Part shown: in pieces, positions 7,158-41,785 of the stretch
How positions within the stretch are numbered: the stretch's first letter is position 1
Layout: each line of letters opens with the position of its first letter
DNA from: Chiloscyllium plagiosum
Taxonomy: Eukaryota
DNA: 49,305 bases
NCBI RefSeq assembly: GCF_004010195.1
Contig: NC_057718.1
Coordinates: 79,551,721 to 79,601,025, forward strand
Reading direction: 5' to 3'
Notes under the pieces: generated by a model
Database searches by the model: none
Seen by the model: only the letters and a program-made list of their open reading frames with translations
Told to the model about the DNA's origin: nothing
Position numbers and translations under genes: made by a program

Positions 7158-7368
7158 TTCGGAGATGCCGGTGTTGGACTGGGGTGTACAAAGTTAAAAA
7201 TCACACAACACCAGGTTATAGTCCAACAGGTTTAATTGGAAGCACACTAGCGTTCGGAGCGACACTCCTTCATCTCACCTGATGAAGGAGCGTCGCTCCG
7301 AAAGCTAATGTGCTTCCAATTAAACCTATTGGACTATAACCTGGTGTTGTGTCATTTCTAACTTTGTA
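7158..7368. mobile_element. Head-to-head inverted pair of family A Penelope pseudo-LTRs
   Basis: About 7187-7274 is the reverse complement of about 7281-7368; TAAACAAGA duplicated at 7149-7157 and 7367-7375. Confidence 0.88.
7276..7310 (+). ncRNA. Minimal type I hammerhead ribozyme motif (one stem I mismatch)
   Basis: CAC-CUGAUGA-A-GGAGC GUC GCUCC-GAAA-GC-UA-AUG. Confidence 0.7.
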
Positions 7369-7379
7369 AACAAGAAGTG

Positions 7380-8160
7380 ATTGGTGATTTGCCAGCCTCT
7401 GAAGAGTTATTTCAAGCCAAAAATGGTTGTGGATGCAAATTAGGTGGCTTTCTGGAGAGATTCCCACAGAATATCATACCTAAATATACAAAGGAACTTC
7501 AAACAATACTCCTTCAAAGGGGAAAGAGACAAGTCAAAACTGATTGCACTATGATCTCTGGTGACTATAAAGATAATGAGAGGTGATGACCTCCACCCAC
7601 CCCTTCTCAACAGCAAGCCATGCCCTGAAGATAATATCCCACAGTGCCAACACATTTTGTGATTTTCCCTTTGAAGAATTCACAAGACAGGTGTTAAAAA
7701 GCCACCTTCAATACTGTTGGAAAGTGCAAGTGAGACTGAATGTCCTCATGTGTATTACTTGGGCTCAAGTGTTAGCATGCTGTGAAGGCTACAGTTGGAG
7801 GAGTATCCCCTAGTCAACTCCTGCATTGCATGTAAAGACTTTCTCCTACTCTGAGTCCGAGAAATCAGCTATTGAGCAGCCAGAGAAAAGGAAACAGGAC
7901 AACAAAAGGACTTTATCTCACCTTGACTGTCTTTCAATTTAAGACTGATCCATATTTCTTCATTAACTTTTATCTTTTTGGTCTTGCCTTTCTTTTTAAT
8001 CTTGTGCATGTGTTGTGTTTCTAATTTTTCCTGTGCTTAGTAATGAATAAACTCACTCTTTGTTAATGCAAGAAAGCCTGATTAGATTATATCCCTTTAA
8101 AACATACGTTAATTTGGGTCTTGGACAAAAGTATTCACAAGGGAAGCAAGCTATTTTTAA
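7380..8160 (+). repeat. Unclassified dispersed repeat, possibly LTR-like
   Basis: 8047-8100 (AATAAACTCACTCTTTGTTAATGCAAGAAAGCCTGATTA) recurs at about 37469-37525; boundaries uncertain. Confidence 0.4.
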
Positions 8161-8214
8161 ATGTTAAAAATCACACAACACCAGGTTATAGTCCAACAGG
8201 TTTAATTGGAAGCA

Positions 8215-8249
8215 CACTAGCTTTCGGAGCGACGCTCCTTCATCAGGTG
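8215..8249 (-). ncRNA. Minimal type I hammerhead ribozyme motif in the Penelope 3' pseudo-LTR
   Basis: Minus strand reads CAC-CUGAUGA-A-GGAGC GUC GCUCC-GAAA-GC-UA-GUG: intact core, stem I CAC/GUG, 5-bp stem II, palindromic AGCU stem III, CUA cleavage triplet. Confidence 0.8.
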
Positions 8250-8679
8250 ATAGTGGAGGGCTCAATCCTAACACACAGAATTTATAGCAAAAATTTACAG
8301 TGTGATGTAACTAAAAGTATACATTGAAAAATTGATTGTCTGTTAAGCCTTTCATCTGTTAGAACACCGTGATAGTTTGACTTCTTTCATGTGTAAAACA
8401 CAAAACCTTTTTTTTAAAAAGTTGCATTCTCAGGTTAGCTGTTAACAATGGTGATAGCTAGACAATAGGTTGAAGGTGTTGGTCCCTGTGTTCTCTGTCT
8501 ATGCCATGATGTTTAGATTGATTCTAATCTAAAAAGTGAGATAACAGAGTTTCACATGAATTCATGCAGTTTTTGAGCTCAGAGTTCTACATGAATGCAT
8601 GCGGTTTTTGAGCAAAGTACAATGTAACCCTGCAAGTACAAATTCACCCCACAAAATATATCCGTGCATGTGGGTCTTT

Positions 8680-8935
8680 GTCTGTCTGCGTGTGTGTGTC
8701 TGTCTGGGTTGGGGGTTGTGAGTGTGAGAAAGTGTATGTGTGTGTGTATTGAGTGCAGAGTGTCTTAAGTCTGTGAGGGGGTGTATGTGTGAGTGTGGGA
8801 GTGTGTGTCTGTAAGGGTGTGTGTGGGTGTCTGTGTGCGTGTCTGTGTGTCCGTGTGTATGTGTGCATAGGAGTGCCTGTGTGTGTGTGTGAGAGTGTGT
8901 GTGTGTGTGTGTGTAGGAGTGTCCGTGTGAGTGTA
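8680..8935. repeat. Degenerate (TG)n/(CA)n microsatellite inside the Penelope 3' region
   Basis: Long interrupted TG runs; source of the spurious HT-repeat ORFs. Confidence 0.9.
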
Positions 8936-8984
8936 TAGTGCAATGGTGGTCACCTGTAATGTGACATGAACCCAAGGTCCCGGT

Positions 8985-11139
8985 TGAGTACCGAACTTAG
9001 CTATCAGCCTCTGCTTGGCCAGTTTTTGCTGCTGCCTGTCCCGAAGTCCACCTTGGGGGATGGTCACCCGAAGGTCTGAGGCTGAATGTCCTGGACCACT
9101 GAAGTGTTCCCCAACTGGGAGGGAACACTCCTGTCTGTTGATTGTTGTGCAGTGCCCATTCATCCGTTGTCGTAGCCTTTGCTCGGTTTCCCCAATGTAC
9201 CATGCCTCCGGGCATCTTGCCTGCAATGTATAAGATAAACAACATTGGCTGAGTCACATGAGTACCTGCCATGTATAACGTGGGAGGTGTCCACACGCGT
9301 AATGGTGGTACCTATGTCCACACTCTGACATGTCTTGCAGCGCCTACCGTGACAGGGTTGTATGGAGTTGTCCTGAGAGCCGGGCAGCTTGCTACGAACA
9401 ATAATCTGTTTGAGGTTTGGCAGTTGTTTAAAGGCAAGTAGTGTAGGTGTGGGGAAGGTCTTGGTGAGGTGCTCATCCTCATTGATAATGTGTTGCAGGT
9501 CACGAGGAACATGGCGTAATTTTTCAGCTCCTGGGAAATACTGAACAATGAAGGGTACCTTGTCGGTTGCAGCACGTGTCTGTCTCCTGAGGAGGTCATT
9601 ACGGTTCCTTGCTGTGGCATGTCGGAACTGGCGGTCGATGAGTTGGGCATTGTACCCCATTCTTGCGAGGGCATCCCTGAGTACTTCCAGGTGTCCGTCA
9701 TGTTCGTCCTCATCTGAGCAGATCCGGTGTATGTGTAGGGCTTGTCCATAGGGGATGGCTGTTTTAATATGTTTTGGGTGGAAGCTGGAGAAGTGTAGCA
9801 TTATGAGGTTGTCTGTGGGTTTGCGGTAGAGTGTGATGCTGAGGTGTCCATCCTTGATGGAGATGCATGTGTCCAAGAATGAGTCAGATAGTAGAGAGTA
9901 GTCCATTGTGAGTTTGATGGTGGGATGGAACTTGATAGTATCACTGTGTAGTTTTATCAGTGACTCCTCGCCATGGGCCCAGAGGAAGAAAATGTCGTCA
10001 ATATACCTTGTGTATAATGTTGGTTGGAGGTCCTGTGTAGAGAAGAAGTCTAGTTCGAACCTGTGCATAAAGATGTTGGCATATTGGGGTGCAAATTTTG
10101 TCCCCATAGCTGTTCCATGTGTCTGGATGAAGAACTGGTTGTCAAAGGTGAAGACGTTGTGATCGAGGATAAAGTGGATGAGTTGTAGGACAATGTTTGG
10201 AGTTTGGCAGTTGTTGGTGTTGAGTACTGAGGCTGTTGTCGCGATGCCGTCATTGTGGGGGATGCTGGTGTAGAGTGCTGAAATGTCCATTGTGACGAGG
10301 AATGTTTCCGGTATGACTGGTCCGTGGGTGCTGAGATTCTGTAAGAAATCCGTAGCATTGCGACAGAAGCTGGGGATCCCCTGTGCATTAAGTTTCAAGA
10401 TGCCTTCAACATAACCAGAGAGATTCTCACACAGGGTCCCATTGCCTGATACGATGGGATGTCCTGGTGTGTTGGCTTTGTGTATCTTTGGAAGGCAGTA
10501 GAAGTCGCCTACATGAGAAGTACGTGGGATGAGGGAACGTAGGGAACTCTGAAGGACTGGATCCAAAGTTCTGATCAGTGTGTTTAATTCACGGGTGTGT
10601 TCTTTGGTTGGATCAGCTGGTAGTTGCCTGTAGTGTTCCTGGTTGTTCAGTTGTCGTTAAACTTCCTTGCAGTAATCTGTTCTATTCTGAATGACATTGG
10701 CTCCTCCTTTATCTGCTGGTTTGATGACAATGTTGTGATTGGTTTTGAGAGCCTGGATGGCATTGTGTTGTGAACAGGTAATGTTTTGCTCTACCTTTGG
10801 GTACGGCTGATGAATCTGGCATTTATATATTTACTGACGGCAGCGGCCCTCCGGTGGGGTCCAGGTTGACACCTTCTTTGGTCGCTCCTCTACAGATTCC
10901 TGTGATGACTGTACCAGTTCATCAGTGGGCTCATTGGGATCACTGCTGGCATCTTGAAAGAATTCCCGGAGTCTCATTCGTCTGATGAACTCCTCCGTGT
11001 CTGCTGCCAGAACCAACGGGTCCATTTTGGTGGTGGGGCAGAAGTTGAGACCCCTTCTCAGGACTTCAATCTCTTCCGGTCGAAGGGTGTGGTCTGATAA
11101 GTTGATAATAGACTTCCCCGCAGTGATAATGTTATCCAC
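8985..11139 (-). pseudogene. Disrupted Penelope ORF: reverse transcriptase and GIY-YIG endonuclease
   Basis: FYCLPKIHK, MDISALYTSI, GTAMGTKFAP, RYIDD, YRKPT, PCHGRRCKTC, VVYLIHC / CPEAWYIGET..LRQRMNGH. Frameshifts near 10800-10830 and 9220, and an in-frame stop near 10658. Confidence 0.92.
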
Positions 11140-16560: not shown

Positions 16561-16752
16561 TGACTTGGAGGTGCCAGTGTTGGACTGGGGTGGACAAACT
16601 TAAAAAGCACACAGCACCAGGTTCATTTGGAAGCACTAGTTTTTGGAGCGCCGTTGTGTCAACCACCTGATGATGGAATGGTGCTCAGAAAGCTAGTGCT
16701 TCCAAATAAACTTGTTGGACTATAACCTGGTGTTGTGTGATTTTTAACTTTT
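16561..16752. mobile_element. Decayed head-to-head pair of family A pseudo-LTRs
   Basis: Left arm on minus with the terminal extension; right arm on plus with CAC-CTGATGA (16664-16673) and GAAAGCTAGTG (16688-16698); flanks TCCTTTGAGCTG / TCCCTTGAACTG (10/12). Confidence 0.8.
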
Positions 16753-17229
16753 TCCCTTGAACTGGTACTGAAGGTGGTCAGAAATATTGAGGCATCTTGT
16801 CTGCAAAGAGTGGAAGGAGTAGGCCACACAGTCAAACTATGTAGTCCTGGCTGGACATGACAAAGCAAAAGAGTCACAGTATTGTAATAAGGTTTTTGGT
16901 GTATTATTTAGTGGTTTTCACCTTATTTAGGGCCACAATGGTTGCCAGGCATAAAGGTGGCCAATTGCTAAGGCCACTCTGTTGTTCATTGCACTGAGTG
17001 GCTTTCATTTGGGGTAGATTGTTAATTATTAACTATATTGCAGGCTTATGAGCTTCCATTTTTTGATGACAAAATTGCAAAAGAGACAAGAAGTGATAAA
17101 GTCTTTGAACAGGGTTGCTGAGAGGACTGGAATGACGTGTTCCATATTTTGTTGGTCTCAATGCAAAGATTCAAAGGTGGTTGAAACATCTTTCCATTAG
17201 ATGTTTCGTAGAGTTCATGATGAATAATT

Positions 17230-18816: not shown

Positions 18817-20480
18817 GTTTGTCTATTTGCAAAAATGTGTTCTTTTTGTATCAGGGTGTTGTGGTGCAGCAAGGCCTGGGTCAGAAAATATGGGTTCACG
18901 TCTGAACCGCTCTAGATATATATCCTAACATGTCTGAACAGGTTGATTAAAAATATCTATTCCACTATCGGGAAAATCACTGTCCAGAAATCTTTGAAAT
19001 TAACAGCTAAGGTGCACATACATCAGACAACTGAGGTGATTTTAGTGTTCAAATTTCCTACATTAATGGTGTTTTTCAACTGGTATTGTGTCATGTTTTT
19101 AATGCTGTTTATAACAGCTCTTCCAGGACAGCTTACCAGCCAAAAGCAGAAATGTATATATTTTAAAGAGACATTCAGACAGTAAAACAATCTGAAATCT
19201 GGCTATTGCATTCCCAATTTGACGCACTTTTATGAGCTTGCCTTTTCTAAATGTGGTAAAAGCTTGCAGAACCTCAAATTAATAGCACCTCAGATGTACA
19301 AACCAAAAAGCTTTTGCTATATATTCAGACTGCGCTCACAACTCACAATGGGAGTAATTTTGATTTAAGGTAATAATGAAACATGCACAAGACTGGTTCA
19401 GCCTTACATTGGCTCCCCCTCAATAAGATACATATTGTCTTCAATACATAAATATTCAGTTCATGCTATCACTCATGTTACACTAACAACCAAAGTTAAA
19501 AGTACTGCCTTCTGTATTCATAGAAAGACTGCAGCCAATTTTAAGACTAAATTCTCGCAGATTAGTTACTGCCTACAAGATTTGATCCCTTGTCTGCTAG
19601 CCTTGTTAAGGCCTCCTCAACCACTCCCTAAAATAGCTTTCTTCTCTGCCTAATATGTTGGCCTCTGGCCCTACTTAACAAGTATTTTAACGGCTGAAAA
19701 TTCCCTTCATGACATTCTCTAGCAAATCCATACACATTTTGGCAGGGATTTCACACTATGGATGGAACTTTTCAATGTCGGAATGACGTGAGCAATTGTA
19801 ACAAATTTGGCCAGTGTCAGTCAGGTGCTTGGTTCAATCATGATCCAGAGATCTATGTTATTACATTCTAAGGACTGAATCAATCTTGCCAGTTAAATCC
19901 ACCTAGTCTGGGGATTACCAGTAAATCAGTTGGGAGTTGCACAGAGGTTAGTCAGTGGAGCTACTTCATTCTTAGTCAAGACTATCTTCATACATTGGCC
20001 CAAAGGTAGGTGATGGCAGTCCTCGTGTTTGAGCAGTAAACATTAAGAGGTATTATCAGAGGAAAGTGCTTTGTTAAGGAAACTGCGGAAGTCAATCTGG
20101 GTATTGGAGCCAGCATACTAGAATATAGAGGGGATAATCACTGTGGAAGTGTGGGGAGGGAAACTCTAGCTCTGAATGGGAATTGATACAGCATGGGAAG
20201 GCACAGGGTACAGCAGGAATGGGGCTTGCGAGTGTTTGTTCATTGGTGGTCACCATGACCATGACTCTGGGTGTGATGGAGAGACAGTGGACAACTGTGT
20301 TGGGCATGGCTATGTGGTAGGTCAAGGGCTTAGGGGCAAAACTGAGGAGATTGTTAGTTAAATAAAAGAATTGGGTGGGCACATGGGGCAAATCAAAATC
20401 TGGTGAGGTTTAAAGGGACTGAGATGCTGAGTGGAACTTGAAAGGAGGAGTATCTTAAATAACAGGCAGAGCCCTCAACT

Positions 20481-21170
20481 CGGTGGTTAGCACTGCTGCC
20501 TCACAGCACCAGGGAACCAAGTTTGATTCCAGCCTTGGGCGACTGTCTGTGTGGAGTTTGCACAGTCTCCCTGTGCCTGCGTGGGTTTACTCCAGGTGCT
20601 CCGGTTTCCTCCACAATCCAAAGATGTATAGGTTATGTAAATTGCCCACAGTGTTCAGGGATGTGTAGGTTATGTGAATTGCCCACAGTGTTCAGGGATG
20701 TGTAGGTTAGGTGCATTAGATTAGATTACTTACAGTGTGGAAACAGGCCCTTCGGCCCAACAAGTCCACACCGACCCTCTGAAGTGCTACCCACCCAGAC
20801 CCATTCCCCTATATTTACCCCTTCACCTAACAGTACAGGCAATTTAGCATGGCGAATTCAGCTAACCTGCACATTTTTTTTGGACTGTGGGAGGAAACCA
20901 GAGCACCCGGAGGAAACCCACGCAGACACGGGGAGAATGTGCAAACTCCACACAATCAGTCACCTGAGTTGGGAATTGAACCCGGGTCTCTGGCGCTGTG
21001 AGGCAGCAGTGCTAACCACTGTGCCAACGTGCCTTTACCCATTAGTCAGTGGTAAAGGTAGAGTAATAGGTTAGGGGAATGGTTTTGGGTGGGATACTCT
21101 TCAGAGGGTCTGTGTGGACTTGTTGGGCCGAAGGACCTGTTTCTAGACTGTAGGGATTCTATTCTATTCT
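20481..21170 (+). mobile_element. HE1-type V-SINE (outer), split by a second SINE
   Basis: Head and V-domain at 20481-20719, tail at 21040-21170; internal 37-bp tandem duplication at 20623-20696. Confidence 0.88.
20716..21033 (-). mobile_element. HE1-type V-SINE (inner, nested)
   Basis: Full SINE on the minus strand; CATTAG duplicated at 20714-20719 and 21040-21045. Confidence 0.9.
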
Positions 21171-26580: not shown

Positions 26581-27970
26581 TTTCCAAGACATAAAAACTA
26601 ATTAAAATTGTATTAAGAATGATGAAAAGATCAAGAGAATAATTCATGAAAAGTTATGAGGTAAATATCAATTTAAATCATGGCTGTAACAGTTGAATGA
26701 TTTCTGAAATTGTATTTCCACATCACTCAGACTTAGATGCACCAGTGCCTTTTATCCCAATGCTGATTTCTAGAATTATGTGATGCAGTATTGTGGGTAA
26801 TATTAATACTCACTAACTCCTCTATCTGATACCAAAGTCTGCAGTTCAGAATATTGAGACCATTTTCTGCCGACAAACACTATTGAGTGTTTTTTATGCA
26901 ACATTGCTTGTAATGTCAATTGCTTTGATCAAAATGAGATCTAATCAGCTTGAAAAAATTGCACAGATGCTCATTAAGTAAGCGTTCAAACTCGAGATAG
27001 AGATGTGTGCTCTCAGACAAGGCAAACAAGAGGTCAAGAAGCAACTGTTTCTTAGTCTCTATCTGCCACAGTTTATTAGTCTTCTTGTCTTCCAGACATT
27101 GGTGATTAAAGAGAAACATCTCTTATCTTAGCTAACACAAGTAACATATGACAGCTTGACACCTCACAGAAGTCATTTCAGTACTACATTCCATTTACTT
27201 ATTGATAACAAATTCTTGACTGAAGATATATGAATACTCATGGAATCTTTTTCAAAAAGATGATTTCATGAATATATTTATGTTAATGATAATGCCTTTT
27301 AAAGAACATTTCACATAGTTTTGAAATAGAAGTTAGCACAATGATCTAGCTGGTGATCAATCCTGCATTTTCAACCGTGGCTGTGATAAAACTTGAAGGG
27401 AGTTAGAAGTTTTAATTTTAAAAACTGCAAGTGCTGTTTATATTGATTTGGAAAAATATATTTCATGCTTTAACCTATCCAATACATAGCCATGAGGCAC
27501 AGTAGACCATTAATGACAATGCCAGAATTATATTCAATCACAATCTGTAACCTCACAGCTGAGCATATGCTTCATTCCACCATCATCATCAAGTCAGGAG
27601 CTCAAACTGGGTTCAATTCAGGGCATGCCAGGAACAGCATCAGTCATTCCTAAAAGTGAGATGCCAACCCGGTAAAACTGTAATACAGGACTACTAACAT
27701 GCCAAATGGTGAAACCAACATGAGGTAGACAGGACATTTCAATCCAACAACCCTCAAATCAGATCTAAGTTCTTCAGCCCTGCCCTCTCCAATCACGGAT
27801 TGTGGTGGACAATTATACCTGTAACAGGAGGAGAAGGCTCCACAAATATCCCTATCCTCAATGATGTGAGAGCCCAACACATCAGTGCGAAAGGGAAGAT
27901 TGACGCATTTGTTTTTATCTTAAACCATAAAGGCTGAGTGAATGATCCAATGTGGTCTCTTCCTGAGGTT

Positions 27971-28221
27971 AGGAGAAAGTGAAAATTGCAGATGCTGGAG
28001 ATCAGAGTCAAAAGCACAGCAGGTCAGGCAGCATCCAAGGAGCAGGAGAGTCACATTCCTGATGAAGGGATTATGCCTGAAACGTCGACTTTCCTGCTCC
28101 TCGGATGCTGCCTGACCTGCTGTGCTTTTCTAGTGCCACACGTTTGATTCTGATCTCCAGCATCTGCAATCTTCACTTTCTCCTAACTTCAGGAAGAGAC
28201 CAAATTGGATCCAGCACCACA
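27971..28221. mobile_element. Head-to-head pseudo-LTR pair (family B) with hammerhead motif and inverted copy of target DNA
   Basis: Arms at 27971-28052 and 28087-28184; CTGATGA at 28059, GAAACGTC at 28079-28086; 14-bp direct repeat CTCTTCCTGAGGTT at 27957-27970 and 28222-28235. Confidence 0.88.
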
Positions 28222-28290
28222 CTCTTCCTGAGGTTCTCTACATTGCTGGTCTTGAACCAATTTAATTCACTTTACAATAACAATGCAGAG

Positions 28291-28525
28291 TCAAGATTAG
28301 AGTGGTGCTGGAAAAGTGGTGCAGGTCAGGCAGCATCTGAGGAGCAGTAAATCACTTTCCAGGCAAAAGCCCTTCATCAGGAATGATGCTCATTCCTAAT
28401 GAAGGGCTTTTGCCCGAAACATCAATTTTCCTGCTCCTTGCTTGCTGCCTGACCTGCTGTGCTTTTCCAGCACAACTTTAATCTTGACTCTAATCTCCAG
28501 CATCTGCAGTACCCACCTCCGCCTG
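28291..28525. mobile_element. Head-to-head pseudo-LTR pair (family B), each arm with a mutated hammerhead motif
   Basis: Plus arm CTAATGA-AGGGC TTTT GCCC-GAAAC-ATC (28396-28423); minus arm CTGATGA-AGGGCTTTTGCCTG-GAAAG; exact 14-bp duplication ATAACAATGCAGAG at 28277-28290 and 28526-28539. Confidence 0.88.
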
Positions 28526-28764
28526 ATAACAATGCAGAGCTGAAGATAGCGGATACTGAAAAGGTTATGGGTCCTGACAACATTCTGATAACAGTACTGT
28601 AGACTCGCGCCCAGAATGAGCCATAACTGTAGCCAAGCCAAGCTCTGCTCCAACTACAGCTACCTGTCAATGTGGACACAAAAAACCAAATAAATCTAAC
28701 TTGACAATTAACACCCTATCAGTCTACATCAGCAGAGTGGTGGGACCAACAGTGCAATCTGATC

Positions 28765-29023: not shown

Positions 29024-29082
29024 AAAGCTCAGTTTGGATTTGACCAGGACTACTCACCACCTGATCTCATTACAGCCTTCGA

Positions 29083-29312
29083 CAAAAAAAAAGAACTGCA
29101 GATGCTGGAAATCAGAAGCAAAAGCATAAACAGAAATTGCTGGAAATATTCAACAGGTCTGGCAGCATCTGTGGAGAGAAATCAGAGTTAACGCTTTGGG
29201 GGAGTCCAGTGATCCTTCTTCAGAACACTTCAGAAACATTAACTGTGCTTTCTCTCCACAGAAACTGCCAGACCTGCTGCATTTTCCCAGCAAATTCTGT
29301 TTTGTTTTTGCT
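29083..29312. mobile_element. Head-to-head pseudo-LTR pair (family C)
   Basis: Left arm is the reverse complement of the right arm; minus arm starts GTT-CTGAAGA-AGGATC; flanks TCTCATTACAGCCTT (29065-29079) and TCTCATTACTGCCTT (29313-29327). Confidence 0.85.
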
Positions 29313-30144
29313 TCTCATTACTGCCTTGGCCCGAGCACAAACAAAAGAGTAGAACTCCAGAAGTAGGTGATAACGATTACCTGTGATATCAAGGTCACAT
29401 TTGACAGAAAATAGCATCTAGCATTGATTGATCAGTAGGGGATATCAAGTTTTTATGGGGAAAAAACAGGAAAGTAGATGTAAGGATGTCAGATCAGCCA
29501 TGACCATATTCAATGGTGCAGCAGGCGGAAAAGGCGGAATGGCATACACCTTTCTATTTCTTCTGGTCTTATGGTGTAAGAGAACTGGGAAAACTCAAGT
29601 CAATGGTAATTGGGGAGAAACTCTCTACCGTTTGATCCTGTCCACAATATTATGATCCTATCTGATGTTACTACTGAACAATCCTGGCCAAGATGACGGC
29701 ATCCAAGGCAGTGGGCTTTCTGCAACAGAATCAAATGGTTGCTGAACCCCTGCCTGAGTTTCTCTGGTGTCCGAAGGAAAGGTGGTGGGTGGGGTTGTGG
29801 TGTTGGTGAGCCTGTGCCCGTGGGTTCACGGAGAACCAGGAACTTTGCTGCTGATCTTACTGTAGTCTGTGGGATCCTGAGGAGGATAGATGTTTGCATT
29901 CGCTGAGGGGGCCATTGTGTAGAATAAGGTGATAGTGGTTTGAAACCAACTTGAGAAGGAATTTATTCCAAGGCAAGTGCATGTGTAGGATTGTCAACCT
30001 CAGAGTGTTATGAAGAGGAAGGAGGTAGATAGATCTCTTAAATATCAAGGAGGCAAAGAGCTGGCACAAAAGAGGAGTTGAGGACTGTGCACATGAACCA
30101 TGAGTTTATAGGATGGCAGGGCAAGGGAGATGAAATTTATTGTT

Positions 30145-38548: not shown

Positions 38549-38638
38549 AGAAAAAAGTGAGGACTGCAGATGCTGGAGTACCAGAGTTGAAAAATGTGGT
38601 GCTGGAAAAACATAGCAGGCCAGGCAACATCCAAGGAA
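38549..38638 (-). mobile_element. Single family B pseudo-LTR arm, hammerhead part absent
   Basis: Matches the family B arms; exact 14-bp duplication CAGAATTAGCCCTG at 38535-38548 and 38639-38652. Confidence 0.85.
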
Positions 38639-39716: not shown

Positions 39717-41785
39717 CAGCGTAAGTAGCAAGTGACAGACAGAGCTAAGCAATCCCAGTGGATCAGATCTAAGCTCTGCAGTCTTGCTACATTCAGTCGT
39801 GAATGGTGGTTGATAATTAAACAACTTATTGGAGGAGGAAGGTCAACAAATATCCCCTTTTCAATGATGAAAAGGCCCAGCATGTCAGTGGAAAAGATTA
39901 GGCTGAAGCATTTGCAGCAATCTTCAGCTAGAAATGTTGAGTTGGTGATGCATCTCAGCCTCCTACAGTGGTCTCCAGCATTCCAAATATCAGTCTTCAG
40001 CCAATTTGATTCATTCCATGTGATATCAAGAAATAACTGAACACACTGGATACTGCAGAGGTTATGGGCCCTGACTACATTCTGGAAATAATATTGAAGA
40101 CTTGTGCTCTAGGACTTGCTGCTTCTCTAGCCAAGTTTTTCTATTACAGTTACAACACTGGCACCTACCCCGACAATGTGGAAAATTGTTCAGGGATACT
40201 GCATACATAAAAAAGAGGACAAGTGTACTTGCAATCATTAGTAAAGTGATGGAAGGGTTCATCAACAGAGCTATCAAGCAGCACCTGCTCAGCAACTACC
40301 TGCTCAGTGGCACCCAGTTTGGGTTCTGTCAGGCCACTCAGCTCCTGACCTCATTGGTTCAACCATGGAAAAAAGAGCTGAATTCCAGAGGTGAGATGAG
40401 AGTAACAGCCCTTGACATCAAGGCTGCATTTGACTGAATGTGGCATCAGGAAGCCCTGGCAAACTGGAATCAATGGGTATCAGGGACAAACACTCTGCTG
40501 GTTGGAGTCATACCTGGCACACAGAAAGATGGTCGTGCTTGTTGGAGGTCAGTCATCTCAGCTCCGGGACATCTCTGCAGGAGTCCCTCAGCAGAGTGTC
40601 CTAGGTCCAACTATCTTCAGCTGCTTCATCAATGTCCTTCCCTCTATTATAAGGTCAGAAGTGGAGATGTCACTGATGATCGTACAATGTTTATCACAGT
40701 TCACAACTCCTCAGACACTGAAGCAGTCCATGTTCGAATGCAACAAGATCAGACAATATCCAGACTTGGGCTGACAATGGTAAGTAACATGCACACCTGA
40801 TAAATGCAAGTCTATGACCATCGTCAATAAGAGACAATATAACCACCATCCCTTTATAGTTAATGGTGTTACTATCACTGAATCCCCCAATACCAACATC
40901 CTGGGGGTTATCAATGACCAGAACCTCAACTGGACTCATCACATAAACACAGTGACTAGAAGTGTAGGTCGGAGGTTGGGAATACTGTGGCAAGTAACTC
41001 AGTTCCTTACTTCCCAAAGCCTGTCCAGCATCTATATGGCACAAGTCAAGAGTCTGATGGAATACTCCCCACTTGCCTGGATGAGTATAGCTCCAATAAT
41101 GCTCAAGAAGCTTGACACAATCCAGGACAAAGTAGCCTACTTGATTTGCTACCGCATGTGCAAGCATCCATTCCCTCCACCACCAACCTTCATTAGCAGC
41201 AGTGTGTACTAGCTACAAAATGAACTGCAGAAATTCACCAAAGATTTTAGGTAGCACCTTCCATGACCACTTCCATTAGAAGGACAAGGGCAGCAGAATC
41301 ATGGGAACATCGCCACCTTCAAGATCTCCCCCCCCAAAGCCATTCATCACTCTGATTTGGAAATAATATCGCCGTTCCTTTATGTCACTGGGTCACAATC
41401 CTGGAATTTCTTTCCTAGGGCATTGTGAGTTAACCTACAGCACATGGACTGCAGCAGTTCAAGAAAGCAGCTCACCATCACTTTCTCAAGGGCAACTAGG
41501 GACGGGCAATAAATGCTGACCAGCCAGTGATGCCAACATCCCACAAATGAATAAAAAATTCAAACTTGTTCAGACATCCTATTGGGGCAATGGCAATACA
41601 AAATGACAACCACTCCTGATGTAGCATGGCATGCTATGCTACGGGTGGACAGGAGGTTAAGGAGGGGAAGGCTAAAATATTTGGTGTTGGCAAGTTAGAG
41701 GGAGATCTGTTTCGAAAATGATCAGATCTAGCTTTCATCACGACATTGGTACCCCGAACAGAAAACATTTACACCCTACTACATA

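Follow-up and report, generated by a model that had tools for sequence, protein, structure and literature searches.

Introduction

Endonuclease-containing Penelope-like elements form insertions in which inverted pseudo-LTRs are accompanied by a tail and a target-site duplication, Pen2a_Av being one example (PMC3846280; overview in PMC8557442). The Penelope-like protein PAc cleaves and extends both DNA strands and starts synthesis at two positions in the RNA, which delimit the tail; a model in which two cDNAs are primed fits this in vitro activity (PMC11167929). How the tandem and inverted structures of these elements come about has, according to the overview, yet to be defined (PMC8557442). 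Hammerhead repeats that are non-autonomous and akin to pseudo-LTRs occur in the one cartilaginous fish sampled (10.64898/2026.07.22.740005).

In other retroelements, newly made DNA is known to fold back at the site of insertion. For L1, a short fold-back inversion at the target site was recorded in 3 events (0.3%), and 1 further event had both features (0.1%), with extra synthesis of 52-220 bp (PMC10191854); inverted and locally templated L1 ends have also been described (PMC11702581). Snap-back 5′ junctions were found in engineered R2 insertions in human cells (PMC11371274), and twin priming (PMC12016303) and short fold-back duplications at yeast breaks (PMC11724301) belong to the same background. 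We found no report in the literature of a Penelope palindrome that enters host flank; subscription papers, figures and supplements may hold examples.

The locus described here lies in a window (the whole stretch of DNA that was analysed) of 49,305 nucleotides. It is a back-to-back pair of hammerhead-motif repeats, likely pseudo-LTRs of the Penelope type, that sits in a LINE between the two copies of a 14-bp duplication. Its parts are as follows.

27758..27943, plus strand: host LINE fragment upstream of the insertion, 69% to a paralogue at 39762-39942
27944..27956, plus strand: 13 nt of host beyond the target-site duplication, copied in reverse (12/13 to the reverse complement of 28199-28211) and in the register of the LINE paralogue
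27957..27970, plus strand: left copy of the 14-bp target-site duplication (14/14 to 28222-28235), probably the primer end of the first cDNA
27971..28053, minus strand: left arm, a pseudo-LTR-like repeat with a tail of ~33 nt at its outer end, lacking 16 nt near 28009/28010 and the hammerhead core
28054..28130, plus strand: inner right arm with a hammerhead core motif at 28059-28083; 28054-28086 have no pairing partner in the left arm
28131..28184, plus strand: outer right arm with a second tail, presumably the first part of a fold-back excursion
28185..28211, minus strand: inverted copy of host 27944-27970 (25/27), bridged by contigs from runs X1 and X17
28212..28221, plus strand: 10 nt of element sequence continuing the inner right arm from 28130, which would be the original tail-less end of the right arm
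28222..28235, plus strand: right copy of the 14-bp duplication, 14/14 to the left copy
28236..28290, plus strand: host LINE resuming in register; its last stretch (28277-28290) is the left duplication belonging to a second insertion
28291..28525, no strand assigned: second head-to-head pair, of a related family, with a tail on the right arm only, a 14-bp duplication and no flank copy; it serves as an internal control
28526..28605, plus strand: host LINE after the second duplication (28526-28539), 76% to 40021-40102 and matching at 47/61 in register

An inverted repeat that continues into host DNA

The 27 nt of host at 27944-27970 are the reverse complement of 28185-28211 at 25 of 27 positions, counted arm to arm, the two mismatches being 27952/28203 and 27967/28188. 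The match ends sharply at 27944/28211; a match this good at that fixed register has a chance of ~4e-13, and the next best match of the same 27-mer anywhere in the window is 17/27. The inverted host copy subdivides into a reversed duplication (28185-28198) and the reversed 13 nt beyond it (28199-28211). On the element side, 28146-28184 are an inverted copy of 27971-28009 (37/39), and just before 28146 the outer right arm is one base shorter than other copies. The host-element junction is thereby duplicated to the exact base. Arms 27944-28012 and 28143-28211 are 94% complementary, the inner inverted pair 28010-28052 / 28087-28129 matches at 41/43, and mismatches over the whole palindrome amount to 6 of 109 paired sites. 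The locus folds as a single long hairpin of -123 kcal/mol, with z = -19 relative to 100 shuffled sequences. The reversed second copy covers 66-69 nt of the left junction, namely the outer part of the left arm and 27 nt of host, and the copied segment, 28131-28211, is 81 nt long.

A sequence-only reading of this DNA had reported that the inverted repeat does not stop at the end of the element, that 10 nt of pseudo-LTR-like sequence follow the inverted host copy, that an exact 14-bp direct duplication comes next, and that the host then resumes. The comparisons bear out each of these points: the repeat runs into the LINE for 27 nt, 28212-28221 is element-like, 28222-28235 are identical to 27957-27970 at 14 of 14 positions, and the LINE register continues from 28236. 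The same reading overlooked two features of the arms. The left arm lacks 16 nt found in the right arm, and the unpaired centre is right-arm sequence. Together they make the right arm (28054-28184) longer by ~48 nt, of which 16 nt are the first feature and ~32 nt, with the sense-strand hammerhead core, the second; the left arm is a strict subset of the right arm plus the inverted host. The right arm has a tail of 33 nt at 28152-28184. If 28131-28211 are set aside, 28130 leads straight on to 28212 in the sequence of the element. The two copies of a 12-nt piece at these points, 28130-28141 and 28211-28222, differ at 3 of 12 positions. The 10 nt at 28212-28221 have microhomology of 2 nt on their left and, depending on the subfamily, of 2-6 nt with the duplication on their right.

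The 27-mer is host LINE. It matches the LINE paralogue near 39.9 kb at 15/27 without gaps and in the same register as its surroundings, a value that 0.1% of random registers reach. The upstream LINE agrees with the paralogue at 39.76-40.1 kb at 28/44 in one running register, the host after the duplication at 24/47 once a 6-nt gap is allowed, and the host after the second insertion at 47/61 in register; beyond the same end of other element copies in the window lies unrelated sequence. The possibility that the 27 nt belong to the element consensus, which the sequence-only reading had named as what would refute its case, is thus largely refuted. The paralogue runs on into weak RVT_1 matches, below the Pfam cut-off, and the host LINE may be CR1-like. 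At 28243/28244 the window's lineage has a 6-nt deletion relative to both the LINE paralogue and the contig of organism B described below.

Relation to Penelope-like elements

The focal locus resembles the Penelope-like inverted pairs in its head-to-head repeats, its candidate hammerhead core motif, its optional tail of 30-40 nt (33 nt here) and its short target-site duplication; the second pair and a related solo copy near 38549 likewise have duplications of 14 bp. It differs from them in having a tail on both arms, a palindrome that enters host DNA for 27 nt, and a third short piece of element before the duplication, and in lacking an RT/endonuclease open reading frame. Positions 28059-28083 give one of 6 matches in the window to a pattern for the hammerhead core; Rfam, at E values up to 1, returned no hammerhead match, its 14 matches in all each being below the gathering score.

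A decayed Penelope-like element occupies 8156-10656 on the minus strand, with an RT frame at 9160-10656 (RVT_1, E 2.6e-08) whose Atlas neighbours carry RVT_1/GIY-YIG at 0.96. The frame at 8765-9253 presumably holds a GIY-YIG-like motif. A hammerhead-motif repeat at 8156-8250, of a family that differs from the focal repeat, lies on the same strand as this open reading frame and downstream of it, which shows that in the family of the 8156-10656 element the hammerhead strand is the sense strand. Since a Penelope-like open reading frame is here followed on its own strand by a related kind of repeat, the outer ends of the pairs would correspond to RNA 3′ ends.

The window holds four other head-to-head pairs (7158-7375, ~16567-16755, 28291-28525 and 29080-29319), which served as controls. 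All four have a tail on a single arm only (in the related pair at 28291-28525 it is 34 nt long), and none has a palindrome extending into its flank. Duplications of 13-15 bp were found in three, each overlapping the tail-less arm by microhomology, and none was found at the pair near 16567-16755. In two of the four the tailed arm is shorter inside, and neither arm is a subset of the other. With 28131-28211 removed, the focal locus has the layout of these four pairs. The suggestion that it records how inverted pseudo-LTRs form in general is therefore not upheld: 0 of the 4 other pairs enter the flank, and in 2 of them neither arm is contained in the other.

Independent contigs and age of the locus

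Contigs were compared from 4 of 24 listed sequencing runs (X1, X7, X15 and X17), X17 carrying the label of organism B and X7 that of organism C. Over 28143-28310 the X17 contig departs from the window by 4 substitutions and one 6-nt insertion, and it bridges each of the three junctions on the right; its first 32 letters do not fit the window. The X1 contig covers 28160-28310 with 0 differences and, by a rule of 31 letters, bridges two of the three right-hand junctions, but X1 possibly comes from the same sample as the window's assembly. At the left junction, X1 bridges (27837-28002) and X17 gives cover with 28 letters beyond. Neither X15 nor X7 has cover at 28233. Among the matches listed for the four runs, no contig spans the central junction 28053/28054 or the whole locus, and the joints listed for the same runs include no empty site. 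The same listed matches show no ancestral allele without 28131-28211 in organisms A and B, and those from organism C leave the right side uncovered. The X7 contig (27500-27973) ends exactly 30 letters into the inverted repeat. Assembly from 31-letter words would break where both arms are identical, and this end may thus be an indirect hint of the same palindrome boundary in organism C.

Fold-back chimeras are a familiar library artefact. That the structure arose in a library or an assembly, or reflects element consensus or chance, is nonetheless barely credible and is already largely refuted. X1 may be the assembly sample, and X15 and X7 are uncovered at 28233; on the other side, the arms differ at 6/109 paired sites, unlike a fresh chimera, the contig of X17, a run labelled as another organism, crosses the three right-hand junctions and has substitutions of its own, and the 27-mer keeps the host LINE register, is absent after other element copies and has a chance of ~4e-13. 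As the right-hand structure is also present in a second organism's contigs, an assembly artefact, the other outcome that the sequence-only reading had said would undo it, is largely refuted as well. Divergence in the flanks (11/363 and 15/300 for X17; 23/474 for X7) is near that between the arms (6/109), which makes the event an old one, earlier than the divergence of organisms A and B. Both nearby insertions (27971-28525) are common to the window and organism B. The feature is thus real, old and well preserved.

Origin of the locus

With the host-element junction present twice, DNA synthesis must have used the finished left junction as its template. The sequence-only reading had held that the second arm was templated on the first cDNA strand after it had joined the target. 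Of this, the part concerning the outer arm and the 27 nt of host survives, these having been copied from a left junction that was already formed; a copying of the whole second arm from the first cDNA is less likely, since the extra 16 nt and ~32 nt of the right arm would require two later deletions.

On balance, we favour an ordinary two-armed Penelope-like insertion with a single out-and-back fold-back template switch during gap filling, an origin argued from one locus. A top-strand nick at 27970 would prime cDNA from the end of the tail, giving the left arm; a second cDNA would start from the bottom-strand end, at a microhomology that is reached before the tail, and yield the inner right arm together with 28212-28221, the two strands joining in the middle. 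The finished left junction then serves as a DNA template, a step that follows by logic from the duplicated junction: the growing top strand may pair with its own single-stranded left arm, copy the tail, the duplication and 13 more host bases, and release. It would return to the original template through the 2-nt microhomology and complete the last 10 nt and the duplication. The point of exit may lie anywhere from the inner arm to 28145, and candidate polymerases are the element's RT and a host repair polymerase. Consistent with this origin are the copy of the junction in host sequence (25/27), the layout that the locus shares with the control pairs once 28131-28211 are removed, and the hairpin (-123 kcal/mol, z = -19), the structure being shared by organisms A and B. 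Against it, the two 12-nt copies differ at 3/12, above the 5.5% expected from arm divergence, unless a CpG decayed both ways or the copies had different templates. The left arm's 16-nt gap goes back to an event distinct from the fold-back.

A reverse-complement copy of cDNA and nearby target lies inside the insertion, as in R2 and L1. As with L1 fold-backs, target DNA is duplicated in inverted orientation at the insertion, which in L1 is ascribed to extra synthesis during resolution, and the size is similar (81 nt here); the L1 copies are described on the 5′ side of the target site, whereas the focal copy reaches across the junction on the primer side and takes in part of the element (PMC10191854). 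As in R2 snap-back, the 3′ end of new DNA would prime on cDNA or, less often in R2, on nearby target before the final junction is made (PMC11371274). R2 belongs to another retroelement class, and unlike those insertions the focal one is a fixed germline event that returns to the original template with the duplication intact. The focal locus probably works like R2 snap-back or L1 fold-back inside a likely Penelope-like inverted pair.

The main rival, which we consider unlikely, places the switch generations later: an ordinary pair inserts, and a replicating polymerase switches within the hairpin, copies the left junction backwards and returns. It yields the same end product, a reverse-complement fragment with a defined exit and return (28131-28211, with a seamless return at 28212), and would account for the difference at 3/12 between the 12-nt pieces. 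Four-point replication switches are likewise out-and-back events that leave a reverse-complement copy of nearby sequence and extend an inverted repeat; they are independent of retrotransposition, and their fit to the observed order hinges on the date of the 16-nt gap (PMC5453318). If the left arm then still had these 16 nt, the order of points is 3-2-1-4; events of this type and its mirror case together account for 31% of 794 high-confidence human-chimp events. If they were already gone, the return lies ahead of the exit, an order that the study did not observe, and it also reports finding no evidence of intra-strand events (PMC5453318). Against this rival, the copied part is common to organisms A and B and shows no sign of being younger than the rest: divergence is even, at 4/66 in it and 2/43 inside (Fisher p = 1), in a comparison of few sites and little power.

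Less probable again is that snap-back copying of the first cDNA, continued past the junction, produced the entire right arm, two later deletions shortening the left arm, with the 10 nt as a templated adaptor (polymerase-theta-like) creating microhomology to the other end. This would be a general route to inverted pseudo-LTRs. Palindrome centres are prone to deletion, the junction is duplicated and the inner arms are alike (41/43). Self-priming has also been proposed for Penelope palindromes (PMC3846280), and in R2 the ends of the cDNA snap back onto cDNA or onto target DNA close by (PMC11371274). The centre, however, consists of unpaired sense-strand sequence of the right arm, where a top-strand snap-back would leave an antisense loop; in two of the four controls the tail is on one arm and the longer inner end on the other, so that neither is a plain copy, and none of the four shows an overshoot. 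The polarity might also be reversed, through opening of a hairpin, which seems to us very unlikely. Here the bottom strand of the right arm and the 27 nt would be the original cDNA with its host primer, and the left arm would be the snapped-back copy, which continued into chromosomal DNA; the hairpin would be opened 27 nt upstream by a second nick in the top strand, and the flipped end would join a 10-nt second cDNA. The left arm is indeed a strict subset of the right arm plus inverted host, and the centre would be the cDNA's own end, as snap-back predicts, pairing six bases (two of them G:T) beside the restart point; among L1 insertions, outcomes with a hairpin or an inverted flap have been described (PMC11702581). 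This route requires one more nick and one more join, and it makes a coincidence of the agreement between the rest of the layout and the control pairs.

The duplicated host-element junction means that at least one insertion of this kind involved DNA-templated copying of the finished first junction, and palindromes extending into unique flank provide a signature that can be counted. Tallied across the genome in young and in old copies, they would tell whether inverted arms arise by two-cDNA priming or by fold-back. It is conceivable, though improbable, that the second arm is routinely finished by DNA-templated fold-back on the primed first cDNA, usually stopping at a microhomology before the tail, and that this locus is an overshoot into the chromosome and back, a frozen intermediate of integration. 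In that case shark-like genomes, with their very many copies, would hold hundreds of overshoots, whose lengths would map the strand-displacement or resection step of the transposition cycle. Taken singly, one old locus changes little, because L1 and R2 are already known to fold back where they insert; it is a clear example and no new mechanism, similar slips being known in other retroelements.

Other repeats in the window

Motif scans for more copies gave 0 matches in viral contigs. Three matches in metagenome contigs (0 in a first scan) and three in prokaryote genomes titled Algoriphagus were taken as chance.

A solo, 5′-truncated copy of the focal family lies at 38549-38638 inside LINE sequence with a 14-bp duplication. 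An apparent second flank palindrome there (38539-38563/38670-38694) was rejected, since it consists of this solo copy, its direct duplication of 14 bp and LINE sequence that is complementary by chance. The two independent, related insertions within 27971-28525 lie 55 bp apart in the same LINE, and both have 14-bp duplications. Nested inverted repeats at 20479-21170 proved to be one common short repeat, presumably SINE-like, inserted in another copy of itself in the opposite orientation; within them, near 20620-20710, is a tandem duplication of ~40 nt.
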